UHGV virus genome: UHGV-0132371
Strand: one strand, 5' to 3'
Length of the DNA: 45,879 nucleotides
Source of the DNA: a virus
In this document: positions 17,982-41,235 of the stretch, in pieces
Layout: every line of letters starts with the position of its first letter
How positions within the stretch are numbered: the stretch's first letter is position 1
Program-made: the position numbers and the translations under genes
The notes under the pieces: model-generated
The model's input: only the letters and a program-made list of their open reading frames with translations
The model's database searches: none
What the model was told of the DNA's origin: nothing

Positions 17982-18493
17982 AATTTAATCTCTTCGCGGT
18001 CCTGGTTGTAGTCATTGCAGGTCTGTCAGTCGCCCTCGTCAAAAGTTGCTCAAACGCCAGTAGCCTACAGAGCGATAACGACGTTCTGCGAAGTGACAAC
18101 TCTATGCAGGGGCAGGTGATCGCCACCCAGGCATTCAACTTCAATCGATTCAATCAGGTTGCAGAACATGCCAACAGGCTTAACTCCCTGATCGACACCA
18201 GCACCGAAGAAACCGTAATCGAATACCGGGAGATTCTCCGCCGTGAAAAAACCTGTGATCTGCCTGTTCCTGCTGACATTGCTGGTGGGCTGCTCGAATA
18301 CGCGTACCGTTTACGTTCCAGCGCAATGCACGCCGATACCGACGGAATTAACGCAGCCGATGATAGTACCGCTGCCGCCGGCTCAATAACGTACTGCCAG
18401 GCTGTGCTCTGGATTAAGCCGCTGCTGGCCGTGATTGAAAAGGGCAATAACAATTTCGCTGGAATTCGTCAAATAGAGAGCGAGCGTCAATAG
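17978..18493 (+). CDS. Rz-like inner-membrane spanin
   Basis: GTG start overlapping the endolysin stop; N-terminal TMD then coiled coil; contains an embedded lipoprotein ORF. Confidence 0.6.
   Translation: MKFNLFAVLVVVIAGLSVALVKSCSNASSLQSDNDVLRSDNSMQGQVIATQAFNFNRFNQVAEHANRLNSLIDTSTEETVIEYREILRREKTCDLPVPADIAGGLLEYAYRLRSSAMHADTDGINAADDSTAAAGSITYCQAVLWIKPLLAVIEKGNNNFAGIRQIESERQ
18243..18389 (+). CDS. Rz1-like outer-membrane spanin lipoprotein, embedded in Rz in the +1 frame
   Basis: 48 aa with lipobox LLVGC and proline-rich C-terminus PLPPAQ; GTG start; not in the ORF track. Confidence 0.55.
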   Translation: MKKPVICLFLLTLLVGCSNTRTVYVPAQCTPIPTELTQPMIVPLPPAQ

Positions 18494-30059: not shown

Positions 30060-30380
30060 ATGAAACTGGCGCGTGAGTTCGGTCGCCCGGACTGGCGTGC
30101 CATGCTTGCTGGCATGTCCTCAACGGAATACGGCGACTGGAAAATCTTCTACCAGGACAATTACTTTCATGATGCGCAGCTGGACGCACATTTCTCCGGC
30201 TTGCTCTACACCATCTCAACCCTGTTTTTTGCCGATCCGGAGTTAACCCCGGACAGTTTCAGCATTCTTTCCTCTGCACCGGAAGACATCGACATCGATG
30301 ATCCGGATGACGATACGCTGATGGCGAAGGCTGCAGGTATTTCAGGAGGCGTGCGCTATGGCCCAGACGGCAGTCGGTGA
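30060..30380 (+). CDS. T: Tail assembly protein gpT, probably made as a G-T fusion by -1 frameshift
   Basis: Resembles lambda T; its frame is open upstream from about 30015 and is the -1 frame relative to G. Confidence 0.7.
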   Translation: MKLAREFGRPDWRAMLAGMSSTEYGDWKIFYQDNYFHDAQLDAHFSGLLYTISTLFFADPELTPDSFSILSSAPEDIDIDDPDDDTLMAKAAGISGGVRYGPDGSR

Positions 30381-32874
30381 TCTGGTCGTTAACCTTGACG
30401 TTAACTCGACAAAATTCAACGAGCAGCTCAGCTACGTCAAAAAAGAATTAAAACAGACCGGCAATACGGCAAACGATGAAGCGTTACGTATCCAGCAGTC
30501 CTTCAGCCGCCAGGAGAACGCCGCGCGTAAGGCCGGTATTTCAGTGGGTCAGTATAACGCAGCGATGCGTATGCTCCCGGCGCAGTTTACTGACGTGGCC
30601 ACGCAGCTGGCGGGTGGGCAGAACCCCTGGCTGATTCTGCTTCAGCAGGGCGGTCAGGTTAAGGACTCCTTTGGCGGGATCATTCCGACATTCCGGGCGT
30701 TACTGGGGACGATTTCCCCGTTGATGGTCGGCATTGGTGCATTGTCCGTTGCAACGGGCGCGTTGTTCTATGCCTGGTACCATGGCTCTTCCACTCTGTC
30801 TGATTTCAACAAAACGCTGGTACTGTCGGGGAACACAGCCGGACTGACAGCTGACCGCATGCTGGCACTGGCGCGGAACGGACAGGCAGCGGGGCTAACG
30901 TTCAACCAGACCAGTGAAGCCCTGACCGAGCTTATCAATGCAGGTGTGCGTACTGGCTCGCGCTTTGATGAAATGAGCCAGGCGGTGGCGCGGTTTACTG
31001 ATGCCTCCGGCGTGCCGGTGGAGAAAGTCGCTGCAGCCTACGGCAAGCTCGCAACTGACCCGACATCGGGCCTGATCGCGATGGCCCAGCAGTTCCATAA
31101 CGTTACCGCAGAACAGATTGCCCATGTGGCGCAGCTGCAGCGTGCCGGTGATGAGGCTGGCGCACTGCAGGCGGCTAACGAGGCGGCTACAGCCGGATTC
31201 AACGATCAGACCAAAGCCATCCGCGACAATATGGGGACGATAGAGTCTTCAGCGGACTCCCTGAAGCGCGCCTTCAAGTCGATGTGGGATGCAGCCCTCG
31301 ATATTGGCCGACCTGACACCGCGCAGGAGATGGTGGCAAAAGCCGAAGCCGCGTTCAAAAAAGCTGATGAAATCTGGAACCTGCGTAAAGGTGACCGATA
31401 TGTCAATGATGAGGCTCGCGCCCGATTCTGGAATGACCGCGAAACGGCCAGGCTTGCGCTGGATATGGCGCAGCAGCAGGCGGGAATTGCCAGGGCGAAC
31501 GAAGAGAATGTATCGCGCGAAGCGGCTGCGGAATCGGATCGCCAGAAGTATGCTGCGCAGGCACAGGCAAACTATGCCAAAACGCAGACGGCACTGGAGA
31601 AATACACGGCCAGGCAGAGCGAGCTCAACAAGGCGCTGAAAGAGGGGCGGATCCTCCAGGCTGACTACAACATCAACCTGGCTGCCGCGAAAAAAGAGTA
31701 CGAAGACACCCTTAAAAAGCCGAAGAAGACCCCGGCAATCAGAACCCCCGCAGGTGCCCGTGCCACCGATACGGCCAGTGCCCAGACGCTGGAGCTACAG
31801 ACACAGCTGCGCACCCTGCAGGAGCATAAGAGCATCAATGACACCATCAGCCAGCAGCGTCAGGAGCTGTGGCGTCAGCAGTCCCGCTTTACGGTTCTGG
31901 AAGAGGCCGCGAAGACCCGAACGCTTTCTGCTGAGGAAAAATCCCTGCTGGCCAGTAAAAGTGAGGTGCTTTCCCGTGCGGAGCTGAATGCGAAGCTCGG
32001 CGATCAGATAGTGGCGCAGGAGCGGCTTAATCGCCTGCAGGATACGTCCCAAAAATACGTCACGCAGATCGGCGAGAAAACCCGAGCCCTTGCGGAAAGT
32101 GCTGGTATGAGCAGTCGTGCAGCACAACGTCGCAATGAAGAGGCCCAGCTTCTTCAGGGCTGGAAAAATGGTGGTGGTTCGAAGAACGATGCTGGTTATC
32201 AGAATGAGCTGCAGGCGCTGCAGGCGTATTACGCCGAGCAGAATAAGCTGCGGGACGACTGGCAGTCCGGAGCCAAATCCGCATGGGCAGATTATGTTGA
32301 TTCTGCTTCAGATGCTTTTGGCCAGATGAAGTCGGCTGCCACCAGTGCGTTTGATGGCATCGGGCAAAATATGGCTGACATGCTGACGCGCGGAAAGGCT
32401 GACTGGGCTGACTTCACCCGCTCCACGCTCTCCATGCTGACACAGATCCTGCTGAAACAGGCGATGGTAGGCCTGGTGGATTCAGCGACAACCGCGCTGG
32501 GATTTGCAGGTGGCGGTTATACCGGTTCAGGCGGGAAATATGAACCTGCAGGTGTCGTTCACCGTGGTGAATTTGTTTTCACCAAAGAGGCTACCAGCCG
32601 GATCGGCGTCGGCAATCTTTACCGGATGATGAAAGGGTATGCCACGGGTGGGTATGTCGGGGGCGGTGGTACAGGCCCGGCTGCAGCACCTTTCGGTGTC
32701 AGTGTATATGCCCCGGTGACGGTCGAGAATGCTTCCGGTAACGCACAGCAGCAAAACGACGGAGACAGGCTGGGTAAGGCGTATCAGCAGGTGATTAACA
32801 AATCTGTCAACGATGGTATCGCCAGGGCAATCCAGCCCGGTGGGCTTATCTGGAATGCGACCAATCGCAGGTAA
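30358..32874 (+). CDS. H: Tail tape measure protein gpH
   Basis: 838 aa, similar to lambda H across its length. Confidence 0.9.
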   Translation: MAQTAVGDLVVNLDVNSTKFNEQLSYVKKELKQTGNTANDEALRIQQSFSRQENAARKAGISVGQYNAAMRMLPAQFTDVATQLAGGQNPWLILLQQGGQVKDSFGGIIPTFRALLGTISPLMVGIGALSVATGALFYAWYHGSSTLSDFNKTLVLSGNTAGLTADRMLALARNGQAAGLTFNQTSEALTELINAGVRTGSRFDEMSQAVARFTDASGVPVEKVAAAYGKLATDPTSGLIAMAQQFHNVTAEQIAHVAQLQRAGDEAGALQAANEAATAGFNDQTKAIRDNMGTIESSADSLKRAFKSMWDAALDIGRPDTAQEMVAKAEAAFKKADEIWNLRKGDRYVNDEARARFWNDRETARLALDMAQQQAGIARANEENVSREAAAESDRQKYAAQAQANYAKTQTALEKYTARQSELNKALKEGRILQADYNINLAAAKKEYEDTLKKPKKTPAIRTPAGARATDTASAQTLELQTQLRTLQEHKSINDTISQQRQELWRQQSRFTVLEEAAKTRTLSAEEKSLLASKSEVLSRAELNAKLGDQIVAQERLNRLQDTSQKYVTQIGEKTRALAESAGMSSRAAQRRNEEAQLLQGWKNGGGSKNDAGYQNELQALQAYYAEQNKLRDDWQSGAKSAWADYVDSASDAFGQMKSAATSAFDGIGQNMADMLTRGKADWADFTRSTLSMLTQILLKQAMVGLVDSATTALGFAGGGYTGSGGKYEPAGVVHRGEFVFTKEATSRIGVGNLYRMMKGYATGGYVGGGGTGPAAAPFGVSVYAPVTVENASGNAQQQNDGDRLGKAYQQVINKSVNDGIARAIQPGGLIWNATNRR

Positions 32875-33980: not shown

Positions 33981-34691
33981 ATGCGTCAGAAAACCATCGA
34001 TGCGATTATGGCGCATGCTGCAGCTGAATATCCTCGTGAGTGTTGCGGCGTGGTGGCGCAAAAGAGCCGGGTAGAGAAATATTTTCCATGTAGTAACCTC
34101 GCTACCGAGCCGACAGAACATTTTCACCTGTCGCCAGAAGACTATGCAGCTGCTGAGGACTGGGGTACGGTGATCGCCATCGTTCACAGTCACCCTGACG
34201 CCACTACGCAGCCGAGCGAACTGGATAAAGCGCAATGCGACGCAATGCTTTTACCCTGGCATATTGTGAGCTGGCCGGAGGGGGATTTACGCACCATCCA
34301 GCCGCGCGGGGAACTGCCGCTGCTGGAGCGCCCGTTCGTGCTTGGCCACTTCGATTGCTGGGGGCTGGTAATGAGCTATTTCCGGCAGACCCACGGCATC
34401 GAACTCCATGATTACCGCGTCGATTATCCCTGGTGGGAGAACAGCTATCCGGACAACTTCTATCAGGACTGCTGGTACGAGTGCGGATTCAGGGAGTTTG
34501 ACGGCCCGCCTCAGGAAGGTGATCTGGTCATCATGCAGGTGCAGGCCGATAAGTGGAATCATGCCGGGATATTGCTGGAGGGTAACATGCTGCTGCACCA
34601 TCTTTACGGGCATCTGAGTCAGCGTGTGCCCTATGGCGGATACTGGCAGGAAAGAACTATGAAGGTTCTTCGCCATAAATCTCTGTGCTAA
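33981..34691 (+). CDS. K: Tail assembly protein gpK (JAB/MPN plus NlpC/P60-like)
   Basis: Lambda K-like N-terminus (MRQ.TID.I.AHA..E.P.ECCG...HSHP). Confidence 0.8.
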   Translation: MRQKTIDAIMAHAAAEYPRECCGVVAQKSRVEKYFPCSNLATEPTEHFHLSPEDYAAAEDWGTVIAIVHSHPDATTQPSELDKAQCDAMLLPWHIVSWPEGDLRTIQPRGELPLLERPFVLGHFDCWGLVMSYFRQTHGIELHDYRVDYPWWENSYPDNFYQDCWYECGFREFDGPPQEGDLVIMQVQADKWNHAGILLEGNMLLHHLYGHLSQRVPYGGYWQERTMKVLRHKSLC

Positions 34692-34723
34692 TCTCTCATA
34701 AACATGAATGAGAGGATAAAGCA

Positions 34724-35239
34724 ATGAAATATTTAATTTTAATACTTGGTGTTTTATTTTTGAATGGTTGTATTCCAAGGGGGATGGTTGACGGTGAAAA
34801 ATACACAACTGAATACCGAGCAAGAGAAAAGTGTGCATTAGATTTTGAGGTGAGAAATAAATTTCATCAATTTGCTTCTGCCTCTAATTTTAAAGTGGTT
34901 AGGGTTGAGGGTGGTAATTATAAATGTATACAGGTTTTCGGCGATGAGTTAAAAAGGCAACAGATGGACTCAAATGATGAATATGAGGCCGACAGAAGTG
35001 GATTAACACTTAGCCAATATAGAGATAAAAAAGAAAGTGATTATGAATCATTGAAGAAAGCATACATCAACTACTATCAGGATAAAGAAAGAGTTTACGA
35101 AGAATATCGTAAAGACGGGAAACTACACACTGATATTTCTTCAGGTCCAGATGGTGTCATTAGAGCAACGTCAATACAGGGGAATGCTCGTTGCGATACT
35201 GTTATAGGGAATACTGGAGGAACATCATCATGTGAATAA
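34724..35239 (+). CDS. Lipoprotein cargo gene (moron) inserted between tail genes K and I
   Basis: Signal peptide with lipobox LNGC; highly charged mature domain; markedly AT-rich; no lambda counterpart at this position. Confidence 0.6.
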   Translation: MKYLILILGVLFLNGCIPRGMVDGEKYTTEYRAREKCALDFEVRNKFHQFASASNFKVVRVEGGNYKCIQVFGDELKRQQMDSNDEYEADRSGLTLSQYRDKKESDYESLKKAYINYYQDKERVYEEYRKDGKLHTDISSGPDGVIRATSIQGNARCDTVIGNTGGTSSCE

Positions 35240-35268
35240 TTGATTAATTCTATGAGAGTGATAAGAGT

Positions 35269-35859
35269 ATGGCCGAAAGAATGACCCGTATTGAGCTTGG
35301 TGGCGTGCTTGGGAAAACATTCGGTAAAGTTCACCACCGCCTGATTTCCCGTGTGAACGAGGCGAGTGTTGCGCTGGCAAAGACGGTTCCGGGATTTGAG
35401 CAGTTTATGATCTCCAGCCAGCGCCGTGGGCTCACTTATTCCGTATTCAAAGGGAAAAAGAATATTGGTGTTGATGACCTTGGCTTCCCGGTCACCGGCG
35501 ATGTTATCCGCATTGTCCCGGTCATTATCGGGAGTAAAAAAGCGGGTGTACTACAGACTATTTTAGGTGCGGTTCTGGTTGCTGTCGGTGTGGTTCTTAA
35601 TTTCACGCCCTGGGCTGCGGCTTCACCATTCTTCTACAAACTTGGTGCCGCAGTCATGCTGGGCGGCGTTGTCCAGATGCTTTCCCCTCAACCAGCAGGT
35701 CTGGCCAGCAAACAAAGCTCTGATAACCGCGCCTCCTACGCGTTTGGCGGGGTCACAAACACCGCTGCGCAGGGCTACCCGGTACCACTTCTTTATGGTC
35801 GCCGGCGAATCGGCGGTGCGATTATTTCTGCCGGGATATATGTCGAAGATCAGCAGTAA
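35269..35859 (+). CDS. I: Tail assembly protein gpI
   Basis: Lambda I-like. Confidence 0.8.
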   Translation: MAERMTRIELGGVLGKTFGKVHHRLISRVNEASVALAKTVPGFEQFMISSQRRGLTYSVFKGKKNIGVDDLGFPVTGDVIRIVPVIIGSKKAGVLQTILGAVLVAVGVVLNFTPWAAASPFFYKLGAAVMLGGVVQMLSPQPAGLASKQSSDNRASYAFGGVTNTAAQGYPVPLLYGRRRIGGAIISAGIYVEDQQ

Positions 35860-35879
35860 GCTAAGTTAAGGAGATGTGT

Positions 35880-36029
35880 ATGTCTTTTGAGTCACGAGTA
35901 GAAAAAACTGAAAATGAAACATCTGAAGTTAATGAAACGGTCCCGCATGAGACCGTAGAGTACGATGCTTCAATGACATTAGGCGTCAATAAGCTTCATA
36001 TTTTTGACGATGTCTTGAATTTGTGGTGA
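35880..36029 (+). CDS. Small acidic hypothetical protein (49 aa)
   Basis: Strong AAGGAGA RBS; AT-rich; 3' end overlaps the convergent minus-strand ORF by 51 nt. Not in the ORF track. Confidence 0.3.
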   Translation: MSFESRVEKTENETSEVNETVPHETVEYDASMTLGVNKLHIFDDVLNLW

Positions 36030-36194
36030 GTTTGTCTTTGATAGGATTTCAATAACTTGTTGCCTTGTATCTACTGGCAATGCTGCTGTTAATACCATTG
36101 TAACTTGTCTTAGAGCCACAATTTCTAAAGCGATTTCTCTAGGAATATTTTCGTCAAGAGTAAATCTAAAATCCACGAACTTTTCTTCGATCAT
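35979..36194 (-). CDS. Small hypothetical protein (71 aa), opposite strand inside the tail gene cluster
   Basis: AT-rich ORF with GGAG RBS; convergent with the 49 aa ORF. Confidence 0.4.
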   Translation of the reverse strand: MIEEKFVDFRFTLDENIPREIALEIVALRQVTMVLTAALPVDTRQQVIEILSKTNSPQIQDIVKNMKLIDA

Positions 36195-36325
36195 CTTATT
36201 ACTCCATTTTAACCGGGTACTTCAGCCATCCCTCGGTCAGTTAACGCCAGAGGCCTACCACTGGCGGGCTGAGCTTACACATTAACCAGGGATTCCTGTT
36301 ACCAACAGCCTGATATTTAAACAGT

Positions 36326-36349
36326 AGCCGCCTTCGGGTGGCTTTTTTT
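36326..36349 (+). terminator. Strong rho-independent terminator immediately upstream of J
   Basis: AGCCGCC-TTCG-GGTGGCT hairpin (TTCG tetraloop) followed by TTTTTTT, 12 nt before the J start. Confidence 0.55.
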
Positions 36350-36360
36350 ATGGACGCGAT

Positions 36361-39300
36361 ATGGCTACAGAGAAAGTATTAAAGGGGCGCAAAGGCGGCA
36401 AATCCAGTTCACGAACTCCTACCGAACAGCCTGATGATCTGCAATCTGTAGCGAAGGCAAAAATCCTCGTTGCGCTTGGCGAAGGGGAGTTCGCAGGGCA
36501 GCTAACCGGCAAAGATATCTACCTGGACGGAACGGCGCTGGAGAATGCCGACGGTTCCCAAAACTTCAGCGGCGTGACGTGGGAGTTTCGCGCGGGGACG
36601 CAGGCTCAAAAATATATTCAGGGTATTCCCGGTACCGAAAACGAAATCAGCGTGGGAACTGAGGTATCAAGCGCTACAGCCTGGACGCGCACGTTTACCA
36701 ATACGCAGCTTTCAGCAGTTCGTCTGCGTCTGAAATGGCCCTCGCTTTTCAAACAGGAAGACGACGGAGATCTGGTGGGTTACTCGGTCAATTATGCGAT
36801 TGACCTGCAGACGGACGGCGGCACATGGCAGACGGTACTCAATACCAGCGTGACCGGCAAAACGACGTCTGGTTATGAGCGCAGCCACCGTATCGATTTA
36901 CCGCAAGCTGGCAGCACCTGGACAATACGTCTGCGTAAGATTACCTCTGATGCCAACAGCGCGAAGATCGGCGACACGATGACGCTGCAGAGCTTCACCG
37001 AGGTGATTGACGCCAAGTTACGATATCCAAACACAGCGCTACTCTACATCGAATTCGATTCAAGTCAGTTTAACGGCTCTATCCCGCAGATCTCCTGCGA
37101 GCCCCGCGGCCGTGTTATCCGCGTTCCAGATACCTACGACCCTGAAACCCGCACTTATAGCGGTACATGGACCGGTGCGTTTAAGTGGGCATGGACGGAT
37201 AACCCTGCGTGGATTTTTTACGATCTGGTTGTTTCTGACCGGTTCGGCCTCGGGCACCGTTTGACCGCTGCGAATATTGATAAATGGACGCTTTATCAGG
37301 TTGCCCAGTATTGTGATCAGATGGTACCAGACGGCAAAGGGGGCAACGGTACCGAACCACGTTATACCTGCAACGTGTACATCCAGGACCGAAACGACGC
37401 TTATACAGTCCTGCGTGATTTTGCGGCCATATTCCGTGGCATGACGTACTGGGGAGGCGATCAGATCGTTGCTCTGGCCGATATGCCCCGAGATGTTGAT
37501 TACAGCTACACGCGCGCCAACGTTGTTGGCGGTCGCTTCACCTATTCAAGCAGCACCACGAAAACCCGCTACACCACAGCGCTGGTTTCATGGTCAGACC
37601 CGGGTAACGCTTATGCCGACGCGATGGAGCCGGTATTTGAGCAGGCGCTGGTAGCGCGATACGGCTTCAATCAGCTGGAAATGACAGCCATCGGCTGCAC
37701 CAGGCAGTCAGAAGCGAACCGAAAGGGGCGCTGGGGCATTCTCACCAACAACAAGGATCGCGTTGTTTCGTTTGATGTCGGGCTGGACGGAAACATTCCG
37801 CAGCCGGGCTACATCATCGCCGTGGCAGACGAGCTGCTTTCCGGAAAGGTTATGGGCGGCCGCATCAGCGCCGTTAACGGTCGCGTTATCAAACTTGACC
37901 GCGTAGCTGATGCAGCACCAGGTGATCGCCTTATTCTCAACCTGCCTTCCGGAGCGTCGCAGAGCAGGACCATTCAGGCCGTGAACGGGGAATCAGTCAC
38001 AGTCACCACGGCATACAGTGAGACGCCACAGGCCGAAGCTGTTTGGGTGGTTGAATCTGACGAGCTTTACGCGCAGCAGTATCGTGTTGTCAGCGTCTCC
38101 GACAACGGTGATGGCACTTTCTCAATCACCGGCGCATGGCACGACCCGGATAAATATGCCCGCATCGATACCGGAGCCATCATTGACCAGCGGCCGGTGA
38201 GCGTGATCCCGCCTGGTAACCAGTCGCCGCCTGCGAACATCGTGATCAGCTCGTTTTCCGTGGTGCAGCAAAATATCAGCGTCGAAACGATGCGCGTGAG
38301 CTGGGACCAGGCGCAGAACGCTATCGCCTATGAAGCGCAATGGCGCCGCAACGACGGGAACTGGGTTAACGTGCCGCGCAGCTCCACAACGTCATTCGAC
38401 GTACCGGGAATATATGCCGGGCGCTACCTGGTGCGCGTGCGCGCAATCAATGCCGCAGAAATCTCGTCCGGATGGGGCTATTCAGAAGAGAAAACGCTGA
38501 CGGGTAAAGTGGGCAATCTACCGAAGCCGGCTGGCTTCATCGCTTCTGAAAATGTGGTTTTCGGCATCGAGCTGAACTGGGGATTCCCGGCGAATACCGA
38601 CGACACGCTGAAGACGGAAATTCAGTACAGCCTGACCGGTACTGATGGTGATGCGATATTGCTGGCCGATGTGCCATACCCACAGCGTAAATATCAGCAG
38701 ATGGGATTAAAGGCGGGGCAGATATTCTGGTACCGCGCGCAGCTGGTTGACCGAACCGGTAACGAGTCCGGTTATACCGGCTGGGTTCGTGGTCAGGCCA
38801 GTATCGATGTTTCTGATATCACCGATGTGATCCTGGAGGACATCAAAGGGTCTGAGACGTTCAAGGACCTGATCGAGAATGCCGTTGATGCCAACGAAAA
38901 AATTGCTGGCATGGCTGACGACATCAAACAGGCCAACGATGAACTTGAGCTCCAGGCGCAGGAAATCGCAAAAAACGCGCAGGACATTGGGCAGGTTCAG
39001 ACCAGTGTTAATGAGCTTTCGAGCACTGTCGGTGATGTGTCGTCTTCTCTCTCAGAGCTTGAGCAGACCGTCGCAACGGCTGATACCGCGCTGGGCCAGC
39101 GAATCGACAGCATCAGCGTGTCTATGGACGGCATGACGGGCGGGGTTAAGAACTCAGCCATTGCCATTATCCAGAACGGGCTGGCGCAGGTGGCCGCGCG
39201 TAAAACGTTGTCTGCATCGGTCGCCGGCAACAGCGCGAATCTGGACCGTATTGATGAGGTGATTGTCAACGACAGGGAGGCAACGGCGCGCTCGCTGCTG

Positions 39301-39912
39301 AGCCTGCAGACGGACGTCAACGGCAACAAGGCATCCATCAACAGCCTGAATCAGACGTTCTCCGACTATCAGCAGGCCACCGCCACGCAGATAGACAGCA
39401 TCACGGCGACCGTGAACGGGCATACCTCCGCCATCACCACTAACGCTCAGGCTATAGCCAACGTTAATGGCGAACTCAGCGCGATGTACAACATCAAGGT
39501 TGGTGTCTCCAGCAACGGGCAGTATTACGCCGCGGGGATGGGTATCGGCGTGGAGAATACGCCATCCGGCATGCAGTCGCAGGTTATCTTCCTGGCTGAC
39601 CGCTTCGCCGTCACCACGGCAGCCGGAAATAGCGTAGCTTTGCCGTTCGTGATCCAGAACGGGCAGACATTCATCCGGGCCAGCTTCATCCAGGACGGCA
39701 CCATTGAGAACGCCAAAATCGGCAACTATATCCAGTCCAACAACTATGCAGCTGGTTCTGCTGGCTGGAAGCTTGATAAAGGGGGGACGTTTGAGAACTA
39801 CGGTTCGACTGCTGGTGAGGGAGCCATGAAACTGACAAATCAGACGATCAGCGTCAAAGATGGCAGTAATGTTCTTAGGGTGCAGGTTGGCCGATTAACG
39901 GGAGTATTCTGA
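36361..39912 (+). CDS. J: Tail tip / host-specificity protein gpJ
   Basis: 1183 aa, lambda J-like across the N-terminal two thirds; C-terminal receptor-binding part diverged. Confidence 0.9.
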   Translation: MATEKVLKGRKGGKSSSRTPTEQPDDLQSVAKAKILVALGEGEFAGQLTGKDIYLDGTALENADGSQNFSGVTWEFRAGTQAQKYIQGIPGTENEISVGTEVSSATAWTRTFTNTQLSAVRLRLKWPSLFKQEDDGDLVGYSVNYAIDLQTDGGTWQTVLNTSVTGKTTSGYERSHRIDLPQAGSTWTIRLRKITSDANSAKIGDTMTLQSFTEVIDAKLRYPNTALLYIEFDSSQFNGSIPQISCEPRGRVIRVPDTYDPETRTYSGTWTGAFKWAWTDNPAWIFYDLVVSDRFGLGHRLTAANIDKWTLYQVAQYCDQMVPDGKGGNGTEPRYTCNVYIQDRNDAYTVLRDFAAIFRGMTYWGGDQIVALADMPRDVDYSYTRANVVGGRFTYSSSTTKTRYTTALVSWSDPGNAYADAMEPVFEQALVARYGFNQLEMTAIGCTRQSEANRKGRWGILTNNKDRVVSFDVGLDGNIPQPGYIIAVADELLSGKVMGGRISAVNGRVIKLDRVADAAPGDRLILNLPSGASQSRTIQAVNGESVTVTTAYSETPQAEAVWVVESDELYAQQYRVVSVSDNGDGTFSITGAWHDPDKYARIDTGAIIDQRPVSVIPPGNQSPPANIVISSFSVVQQNISVETMRVSWDQAQNAIAYEAQWRRNDGNWVNVPRSSTTSFDVPGIYAGRYLVRVRAINAAEISSGWGYSEEKTLTGKVGNLPKPAGFIASENVVFGIELNWGFPANTDDTLKTEIQYSLTGTDGDAILLADVPYPQRKYQQMGLKAGQIFWYRAQLVDRTGNESGYTGWVRGQASIDVSDITDVILEDIKGSETFKDLIENAVDANEKIAGMADDIKQANDELELQAQEIAKNAQDIGQVQTSVNELSSTVGDVSSSLSELEQTVATADTALGQRIDSISVSMDGMTGGVKNSAIAIIQNGLAQVAARKTLSASVAGNSANLDRIDEVIVNDREATARSLLSLQTDVNGNKASINSLNQTFSDYQQATATQIDSITATVNGHTSAITTNAQAIANVNGELSAMYNIKVGVSSNGQYYAAGMGIGVENTPSGMQSQVIFLADRFAVTTAAGNSVALPFVIQNGQTFIRASFIQDGTIENAKIGNYIQSNNYAAGSAGWKLDKGGTFENYGSTAGEGAMKLTNQTISVKDGSNVLRVQVGRLTGVF

Positions 39913-41001: not shown

Positions 41002-41235
41002 ATGATTAAGCTTCTTATCGGTATGGCTTGCGCTGCCATGCTTTCAGGTTGCGCTGGTGTACTTGAGAAACAGGAACCGATTTGCAGCGGCACGGCATAT
41101 ATGGGTGGCCATGAGAATACCGTTATGATTTACGCCGTTCGAAAGCAAAACAACCAGACGCAATACCGGGCCGGATATCCCTTTAACTGGCGCTGGGTAA
41201 GTGCGAACACATTCACAAGCACGACATGTAAATAA
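41002..41235 (+). CDS. Cor-like outer-membrane lipoprotein (putative superinfection exclusion)
   Basis: 77 aa, signal peptide with lipobox LSGC; position downstream of J as for cor in phi80/N15-type phages. Family from memory. Confidence 0.5.
   Translation: MIKLLIGMACAAMLSGCAGVLEKQEPICSGTAYMGGHENTVMIYAVRKQNNQTQYRAGYPFNWRWVSANTFTSTTCK

Follow-up and report, generated by a model that had tools for sequence, protein, structure and literature searches.

The 45,879-nucleotide (nt) virus genome UHGV-0132371, referred to here at its full length as the window, carries a gene for a 171-amino-acid (aa) lipoprotein precursor between the tail assembly genes K and I of a lambdoid tail-tip module. The gene is an insertion relative to empty K/I sites, and the interpretation favoured here is that of an accessory envelope moron, most likely a phage-exclusion factor acting at the envelope, with a probability of roughly 0.4 for exclusion. 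According to this proposal, the K/I junction of a lambda/N15-type tail-tip module would be a variable insertion slot with the gene as its cargo, and the product would pass through Sec, receive its lipid at Cys16 and be delivered to the outer membrane by Lol. The ectodomain, stabilised by disulfides, would comprise two parts, a variable N-domain close to the membrane and, carried on a helix of ~36 residues, a conserved beta domain at the C-terminus. By binding an outer-membrane or periplasmic component, or the tail tip of an incoming phage, the lipoprotein could cause adsorption or DNA delivery of other phages to fail, as with Cor, Llp, Rtp45 and HK97 gp15. The window copy would probably be expressed through read-through of the late operon, with its translation coupled to K via a hairpin. 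Prophage envelope morons decide which phages infect a strain and sometimes affect virulence, and only a handful have been characterised. If the proposal is correct, a structurally new and larger type is added to the Cor/Llp/Rtp45 set and the K/I junction is marked as a site to mine for envelope-level anti-phage genes; otherwise, the gene is one more rare hypothetical cargo gene.

The insertion is evident from comparison with empty sites. An earlier note on this DNA, made from the sequence alone, considered K and I to be normally adjacent, and alignments agree, as the K stop overlaps the I start in N15, HK225 and Phi06_2987. An empty-site query, in which the last 300 nt of K are joined to nt 13-312 of I, was compared with 5426 complete Escherichia coli genomes. 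Both flanks are present in 27 genomes, 26 of which have an empty site that spans 631 nt and in which K overlaps I by 16 nt, while the filled site of the remaining genome, MB06022, spans 1200 nt. Because the 26 empty sites have near-identical flanks (up to 96.2% identity to the window) and K overlaps I in all of them, the lipoprotein gene represents an insertion of roughly 600 bp. The interval given in the earlier note, 34692-35268, corresponds exactly to the distance from the K stop to the I start. The DNA that differs from empty K/I junctions is slightly longer (~34650..35280, + strand), judged by alignment with N15, HK225, Phi06_2987 and the empty site of E. coli W619, and the empty sites have ~31 nt in its place. 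It includes the last ~10 codons of K, which diverge from the empty sites and end in ...KSLC before the stop codon, and the first four codons of I, which are replaced (MAER versus MQEV). The K end AAATCTCTGTGCTAA is common to the sister locus L024, whose cargo is different. In total, 42 E. coli genomes contain this K type and the lipoprotein gene is found in one of them, which is also the only occurrence among the 5426 complete genomes.

That genome, MB06022 (NZ_CM129892.1), was obtained from Galapagos seawater. Its K, insert and I segments, queried over 33981-35859, are all 100% identical to the window, whereas identity is 83-97% in the other morphogenesis genes and no alignment is obtained for the early and right-end regions. 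The contrast between the K-insert-I segment and the remaining genes indicates that both prophages are mosaics with a recently exchanged segment. Relative to a Citrobacter copy, the synonymous divergence (dS) of the lipoprotein gene is 0.72, well under the 1.5-2.4 seen for K, L and M, and the protein identity of 79% lies inside the range of its neighbours (74-92%). A search of the insert for terminal repeats that would hint at a mobile element gave only short, chance-level repeats. By eye, a 7-8-nt AUGAGAG motif is found in inverted orientation at the left end and in direct orientation at the right end, which is too short for interpretation.

The inserted gene (34724..35239, + strand) is delimited by the open reading frame (ORF) list and characterised by a family alignment (A2), an AlphaFold2 (AF2) model and substitution rates. 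Its GC content of 0.355 contrasts with 0.551 for K, 0.535 for I and 0.508 for the whole window, and at third codon positions (GC3) the value is 0.26 versus 0.63 for K. This places the gene within the lowest 0.2% of all 516-nt segments across the 45.9 kb (z = -3.0), in line with the distinctly lower GC content described in the earlier note. Relatives are likewise AT-richer than the DNA upstream of them (GC 0.38-0.45 versus 0.47-0.56), with the exception of the locus L020 (0.39 versus 0.42). Comparison with the 79%-identical copy of Citrobacter farmeri yields a ratio of nonsynonymous to synonymous substitution rates (dN/dS) of 0.17, and 55 of the 95 differences fall on third codon positions; the gene is under purifying selection.

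The encoded protein is a lipoprotein-type precursor, as had been proposed from its signal peptide and lipobox, and this character is conserved across a small family. Its N-terminus, MKYLILILGVLFLNGC, consists of a basic n-region and a hydrophobic core, followed by the lipobox-like sequence LNGC, so that the signal peptide covers aa 1-15 and the predicted lipid-modified residue is Cys16 (codon 34769-34771, + strand). Asn at lipobox position -2 is atypical, as this position is T, S, V or G in 11 of 14 full-length sequences. The pattern L/I-[TSVGN]-G-C is present in 12 of 13 full-length relatives (P0012 has LSSC), and the lipobox Cys is kept in all 14 full-length sequences of the A2 alignment and is missing only in the N-terminally truncated P0014. 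Under the Lol avoidance rule, a residue other than Asp at position +2 predicts sorting to the outer membrane. Since this residue is Ile in the window protein and never Asp across the family (I, I, V, I, T, A, V, V, A, A, Q, K or Q), the lipoprotein is predicted to reside in the outer membrane. The mature part of 156 aa is indeed strikingly charged (33%, with 25 K+R and 27 D+E), has a pI of 5.8 and contains four further Cys residues.

These four non-lipidated Cys residues are distributed as two per domain in the AF2 model that was computed from the family alignment, with a predicted local distance difference test score (pLDDT) of 89.1 and a predicted template modelling score (pTM) of 0.65. The predicted N-domain is formed by a helix (aa 30-44) and a beta-hairpin (aa 56-70) and contains Cys37 and Cys68. 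It is followed by a predicted helical hairpin (aa 73-91 and 96-131) and by a C-terminal beta domain with four predicted strands (aa 134-170), which contains Cys157 and Cys170. Cys37/Cys68 and Cys157/Cys170 may pair as two disulfides, which would suit an exported protein. Two types of N-domain can be distinguished in the family alignment: type A, found in the window, with TEYxAR..C...FKV..GDWxC.VFG., and type B, with VDYKYENHAY.... Both types share the helical stretch and the C-domain motif AKERLYESYRKDGKLHTDxYxxPDGxIRxTTIxGxxRC......C. The invariant residues of the A2 alignment are D131, G132, K133, H135, D143, G144, G153, R156, C157 and C170, and C68 is listed as well.

The homology and structure comparison suggested in the earlier note gave a confident AF2 model, which has no structural relative in the search made with it, and a single library family that is reached through relatives. 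For the window protein itself, scans of Pfam, NCBIfam, PHROG and PADLOC gave nothing significant (phrog_18989 was without a match at E <= 1), and 15 family members showed no above-noise match in Pfam, NCBIfam or PADLOC, including the Bor/Iss and YebO/gp15 families. Weak Pfam matches to DUF6985 and Fib-H_N were discarded, as they fall below the cut-off and are inconsistent between members. The sole library family matched is phrog_18989 (PHROGs v4, function unknown), which is hit by 11 of the 15 members with a best E-value of 2.2e-12. The best match is full length (2-163 of 167); type B members match over their full length and type A members over the C-terminal half. P0002, which is 79% identical to the window protein, matches this family with E = 0.0025 over residues 2-170, and by transitivity via P0002 the window protein is a member too. 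AT-rich envelope morons are a known kind of gene in the tail operons of lambdoid phages. This family is new in being uncharacterised and very rare, in its confident fold without a relative, in its two-domain design with a swappable N-domain and in its strict residence in tail-tip modules.

The rarity of the family is apparent from large-scale searches. Two clusters, with 99% and 79% identity, came from a word-indexed search of 5.8 billion proteins and seven from scanning 1.84 billion representatives in full with HMMER, and a profile search brought the number to 14 clusters in all; scanning 241 million metagenome records added two more loci. Named hosts are E. coli, C. farmeri and Erwinia persicina, all from NCBI assemblies, although a scan of GTDB genomes by peptide pattern gave no confirmed locus. 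The insert was not found in 50,697 phage records at the DNA level or by tblastn, nor the lipoprotein gene in 72,556 plasmids. This distribution bears on an unlikely explanation, in which the lipoprotein is a lysogenic-conversion factor unrelated to phages that increases host fitness, for example through Bor/Iss-like serum or complement resistance, adhesion or tolerance to envelope stress. As an AT-rich prophage envelope moron the gene belongs to the same class as Bor, and the functions of morons are diverse (PMC3594210). The C-domain is kept across E. coli, Citrobacter and Erwinia hosts and could bind a conserved component of the host envelope. However, there is no match to Lambda_Bor or to any other Pfam or NCBIfam family, and the extreme rarity (14 clusters and one of 5426 E. 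coli genomes) is unlike that of a broadly useful fitness gene. The confinement to tail-tip modules would also be without an obvious rationale for a factor directed at the host.

This confinement is complete in the loci compared. H, M, L, K, I and J were mapped by tblastn in 18 loci, with Pfam labels for many, which together with the window form a set of 19. In all 19 loci, representing ~10 distinct lineages, the gene is located inside the lambda-type H..J module on the strand of the tail genes, at one of three junctions: between H and M in four lineages, between L and K in one and between K and I in five, two of which have other inserted genes in between. In the window, the tail-tip gene H (30358..32874, + strand) is followed by M and L and then by K (33981..34691, + strand), which contains Prok-JAB and NlpC/P60 domains (Pfam) and matches phrog_30. 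To the right of the lipoprotein gene lie I (35269..35859, + strand; phrog_32, E = 6e-73) and J (36361..39912, + strand). Since the gene is absent from 41 of the 42 E. coli genomes with the same K and from the 50,697 phage records, and since its position within the module varies, it is accessory and no integral tail component. Homologues built into the tails of related phages, against which the earlier note had weighed its proposal, were thus not encountered.

A role as a structural or assembly component of the tail, or as the outer-membrane spanin of the lysis system, is extremely improbable for these reasons. The position in the tail operon is the one point that speaks for it, and nearly all related tail modules lack the gene and have K overlapping I. 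A virion or cytoplasmic tail-assembly role is ruled out because the conserved export and lipidation signal (Sec/Lsp) is incompatible with it, and a spanin role because an Rz with a Rz1-type lipoprotein embedded in it already exists in the lysis cassette; identity with an Rz1-type outer-membrane spanin was also rejected on grounds of location and composition. The embedded gene is a proline-rich lipoprotein ORF (MKKPVICLFLLTLLVGCSNTRTVYVPAQCTPIPTELTQPMIVPLPPAQ, 18243..18389) that lies out of frame inside an Rz-like ORF ending at 18493. The annotation of MB06022 shows no such embedded Rz1-type gene in its lysis cassette, a region that does not align between the two prophages.

The junctions occupied by the gene also bear on the very improbable idea that the lipoprotein is a periplasmic, Spackle- or immunity-like inhibitor of a K-type NlpC/P60 peptidase, encoded either by the same phage or by superinfecting relatives. 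The gene adjoins K, on one side or the other, in about half of the lineages, K does have the NlpC/P60 domain, and the long helix of the model could place the C-domain near the peptidoglycan. On the other hand, four lineages carry the gene between H and M, two genes away from K, and the protein has no similarity to known hydrolase inhibitors. Moreover, K is not known to be a part of the virion that enters the periplasm, which further counts against this idea.

The interpretation as an envelope moron can be weighed against the transcription signals. The earlier description as a moron holds insofar as the gene is extra, AT-rich and accessory DNA, and it lacks support from an own promoter and terminator in the window copy, although relatives have such elements. 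Three negative results qualify the favoured interpretation: no sigma-70-like promoter was detected by scanning the + strand upstream of the window copy, no terminator was detected by scanning between the lipoprotein stop and I, and in library and structure searches none of the characterised exclusion or conversion lipoproteins matched in sequence or fold. Visual inspection shows just one weak extended -10-like sequence, TGCTAATCT, at 34686-34694. Among the relatives, a sigma-70-like site with 9 of 12 consensus matches, which is promoter-like only, lies 30-60 nt ahead of the gene in L013, L015, L017 and L020. A scan places a terminator, composed of a GC-rich hairpin and a T-run, directly after the gene in L012, L013, L014, L015 and L017, and the same arrangement can be recognised by eye in L009, L011 and L020. 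Judged by these signals, most relatives look like classical, autonomously transcribed morons.

The lineage of the window, which includes L002-L004 and L022, has a stripped version of this arrangement with spacers of 32 and 29 nt. The K-to-lipoprotein spacer (34692..34723, + strand) contains a hairpin that starts 1 nt past the K stop codon (34689-34691) and consists of a 5' arm at 34692-34699 (UCUCUCAU), a loop at 34700-34707 and a 3' arm at 34708-34715 (AUGAGAGG, + strand). The Shine-Dalgarno sequence GAGAGGA (34710-34716, + strand) overlaps the 3' arm and lies 7 nt ahead of the ATG. RNA folding yields -14 kcal/mol for this hairpin, with z = -3.7 in the window and z = -3.55 in L002, and L024 shows a hairpin with another stem sequence at the same place ahead of its different cargo gene (z = -2.3). 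The lipoprotein-to-I spacer (35240..35268, + strand) provides the new ribosome-binding region of I, GATAAGAG, and partly repeats the upstream AUGAGAG-GAUAA motif. Taken together, the gene in the window lineage has apparently given up its promoter and terminator and acquired a ribosome-binding site gated by a hairpin, and translation of the lipoprotein may be gated by ribosomes that terminate on K.

Such an arrangement would also suit a late-phase helper, a doubtful alternative in which the lipoprotein is made together with the late tail operon, coupled to K, and alters the envelope as the cell dies, which would keep progeny from being lost on debris. This could occur by inactivation of the receptor or by coating of debris and vesicles, and corresponds to the second role that has been proposed for T5 Llp. 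The window copy without detected promoter or terminator, the spacers of just 32 and 29 nt, the hairpin that occludes the Shine-Dalgarno sequence 1 nt past the K stop, its counterpart in L024 with a different cargo and stem, and the invariable location on the tail-gene strand are all consistent with late expression. In addition, non-productive adsorption to debris is a stated rationale for exclusion lipoproteins (PMC9586334). Against this alternative, most relatives have both a promoter-like site and a terminator and look autonomous, the lipoprotein does not co-vary with the end of J that binds the receptor, and Cor is already there for the presumed FhuA receptor.

For the favoured exclusion factor, the content of the same slot in other prophages provides context. 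Sister E. coli prophages with the K type of the window carry different cargo at the K/I junction: a 113-aa lipoprotein in CUPF12 and a 110-aa lipoprotein in UMNK88 and ETEC1749 (both phrog_914), a 131-aa lipoprotein in EC23HZZ201 (phrog_16082), and a 74-aa YebO-family membrane protein in VREC0761 and YZ_2_2 (PF13974, phrog_5031). These genes, located at L024:3241-3582, L028:2112-2444(-), L030:727-1059, L027:838-1233, L025:3259-3483 and L029:2197-2421(-), are all AT-richer than their flanks, and lipoproteins account for four of the five K/I cargo types seen. The K/I junction is a hot spot for envelope-targeted cargo, with one cargo class of proven exclusion function. Three envelope morons are found within one tail-tip module in L013 (8001-10048), namely a 172-aa family member at L/K and both a YebO-like gene and a 110-aa lipoprotein gene at K/I. 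A PDZ-domain protein is encoded between K and I in L008.

Further variable elements are located at other positions of the module. A second AT-rich island of the window lies between I and J (35860-36360, GC ~0.36-0.40) and contains a minus-strand ORF of 71 aa (35979..36194; WP_053263845.1, weak match to phrog_6806) and a terminator-like hairpin (36326-36343) just ahead of J. An identical 71-aa protein is encoded at I/J in E. coli EC23HZZ201 and YZ_2_2, whose K/I cargo differs, and the two slots thus vary independently. L002, L004 and HK225 have an 88-aa ORF on the + strand at I/J instead. A conserved ORF of 68-74 aa without a signal peptide, whose product ends in ...AKAK..LK..., directly follows the tape-measure gene in L015 (6714-6938), L017 (6735-6959) and L013 (6522-6728), ahead of either M or the lipoprotein gene, and has no counterpart in the window. 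At H/M loci, a 74-aa ORF in front of the gene was considered as an obligate partner and rejected, since it is absent from the window. In L015/L016 (7694-9897), which are two E. coli assemblies, the H/M lipoprotein gene is followed by an Arc(-)/Arc/Bro-N+P22_AR_C/ORF6N cassette, an immI-like antirepressor region inside the tail operon between H and M. Finally, L012 (13444-13731) and L020 (12437-12727) encode a TonB_C-domain protein of ~95 aa 3' of J, at the position where the window carries cor (41002..41235). The L012 protein has the lipoprotein signal MKHLIVVVLTFLLVGC, and the TonB_C protein may represent a further means of exclusion at the envelope, directed against TonB-dependent receptors.

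A role in superinfection exclusion or lysogenic conversion, as suggested in the earlier note, would rest on analogy with known systems. The window protein resembles Cor, Llp and Rtp45 in being a phage lipoprotein from the tail or receptor-binding region of a siphophage with (here predicted) sorting to the outer membrane. In contrast to these proteins of ~6-7 kDa, which are encoded beside the receptor-binding gene, it has a mature mass of 17 kDa (2.5x), consists of two domains and is encoded upstream of I and J. Homology to Cor (phrog_1119) was rejected: the PHROG matches of four members (E 0.004-0.02) are restricted to residues 1-38 and reflect signal-peptide similarity, an hhalign comparison of A2 with the window Cor aligns only the signal peptide (28 columns), and there is no NCBIfam match. 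A matched blocker of the phage's own receptor, of the Llp/Rtp45 type, was also rejected because lipoprotein identity is uncoupled from the identity of the J C-terminus (79% versus 30%, 100% versus 73% and 31% versus 68%). The J C-terminus of the window is 95-97% identical to that of HK022-type phages, which use FhuA. Given that the protein is larger than and unrelated to Cor, Llp and Rtp45, does not co-vary with J, and coexists with Cor and an HK022-like J, the more likely target of the putative exclusion would be a different receptor, in defence against other phages, or a step after adsorption, rather than the own receptor.

Cor, Llp and Rtp45 inactivate the receptor of their own phage by jamming FhuA or LptD from the periplasmic side, Llp and Rtp45 being lipoproteins of the periplasmic face of the outer membrane (PMC9586334; PMC12685063). 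Lipoproteins encoded in the structural cluster of mEpimmI coliphages exclude OmpA- or LamB-dependent phages, as determined experimentally (PMC11893012). Lpp021 and Lpp010 of these phages are comparable to the window protein in that they are located inside the structural cluster of temperate coliphages and occur in several sequence types. They belong to another phage group and tail module, and no homology was detected by tblastn among the 50,697 phage records, in which the presence of mEp genomes was unchecked. Ltp of the Streptococcus phage TP-J34, a lipoprotein with several domains, acts by preventing DNA injection and not adsorption (PMC3952083); it would be a possible functional analogue if the conserved C-domain targets an incoming tail tip or tape measure. 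Extending this comparison, the window protein could belong to a new class of outer-membrane lipoproteins with two domains that is specialised for tail tips of the lambda type, which we consider quite unlikely. In such a Gram-negative counterpart of Ltp, a long helix would hold the C-domain away from the membrane, where it would block DNA delivery by recognising either a conserved part of the incoming tail tip or tape measure or the conserved host factor needed by it in the periplasm, with the interchangeable N-domain (A or B) tuning specificity or anchoring. The confinement to the H-J region would then reflect linkage of the exclusion factor to the targeted tail-tip type, and genes for exclusion at the envelope would diversify in a slot made up of the K/I, L/K and H/M junctions.

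For the broader proposal of an exclusion moron, HK97 gp15 offers a precedent from within a lambdoid tail operon. This YebO-family protein was the first moron described, and experiments showed that it prevents superinfecting phages from introducing their DNA (PMC3594210). It is an inner-membrane protein with a transmembrane helix, whereas the window protein is of the lipoprotein type, and its gene is located between the tail chaperone and tape-measure genes rather than at K/I. There is no sequence relationship between them, as PF13974 is matched by no member of the window family. Both genes nevertheless represent compositionally deviant extra DNA between lambdoid tail genes that codes for a small envelope protein, and genes of the YebO family occupy the same K/I slot in VREC0761, YZ_2_2 and L013.
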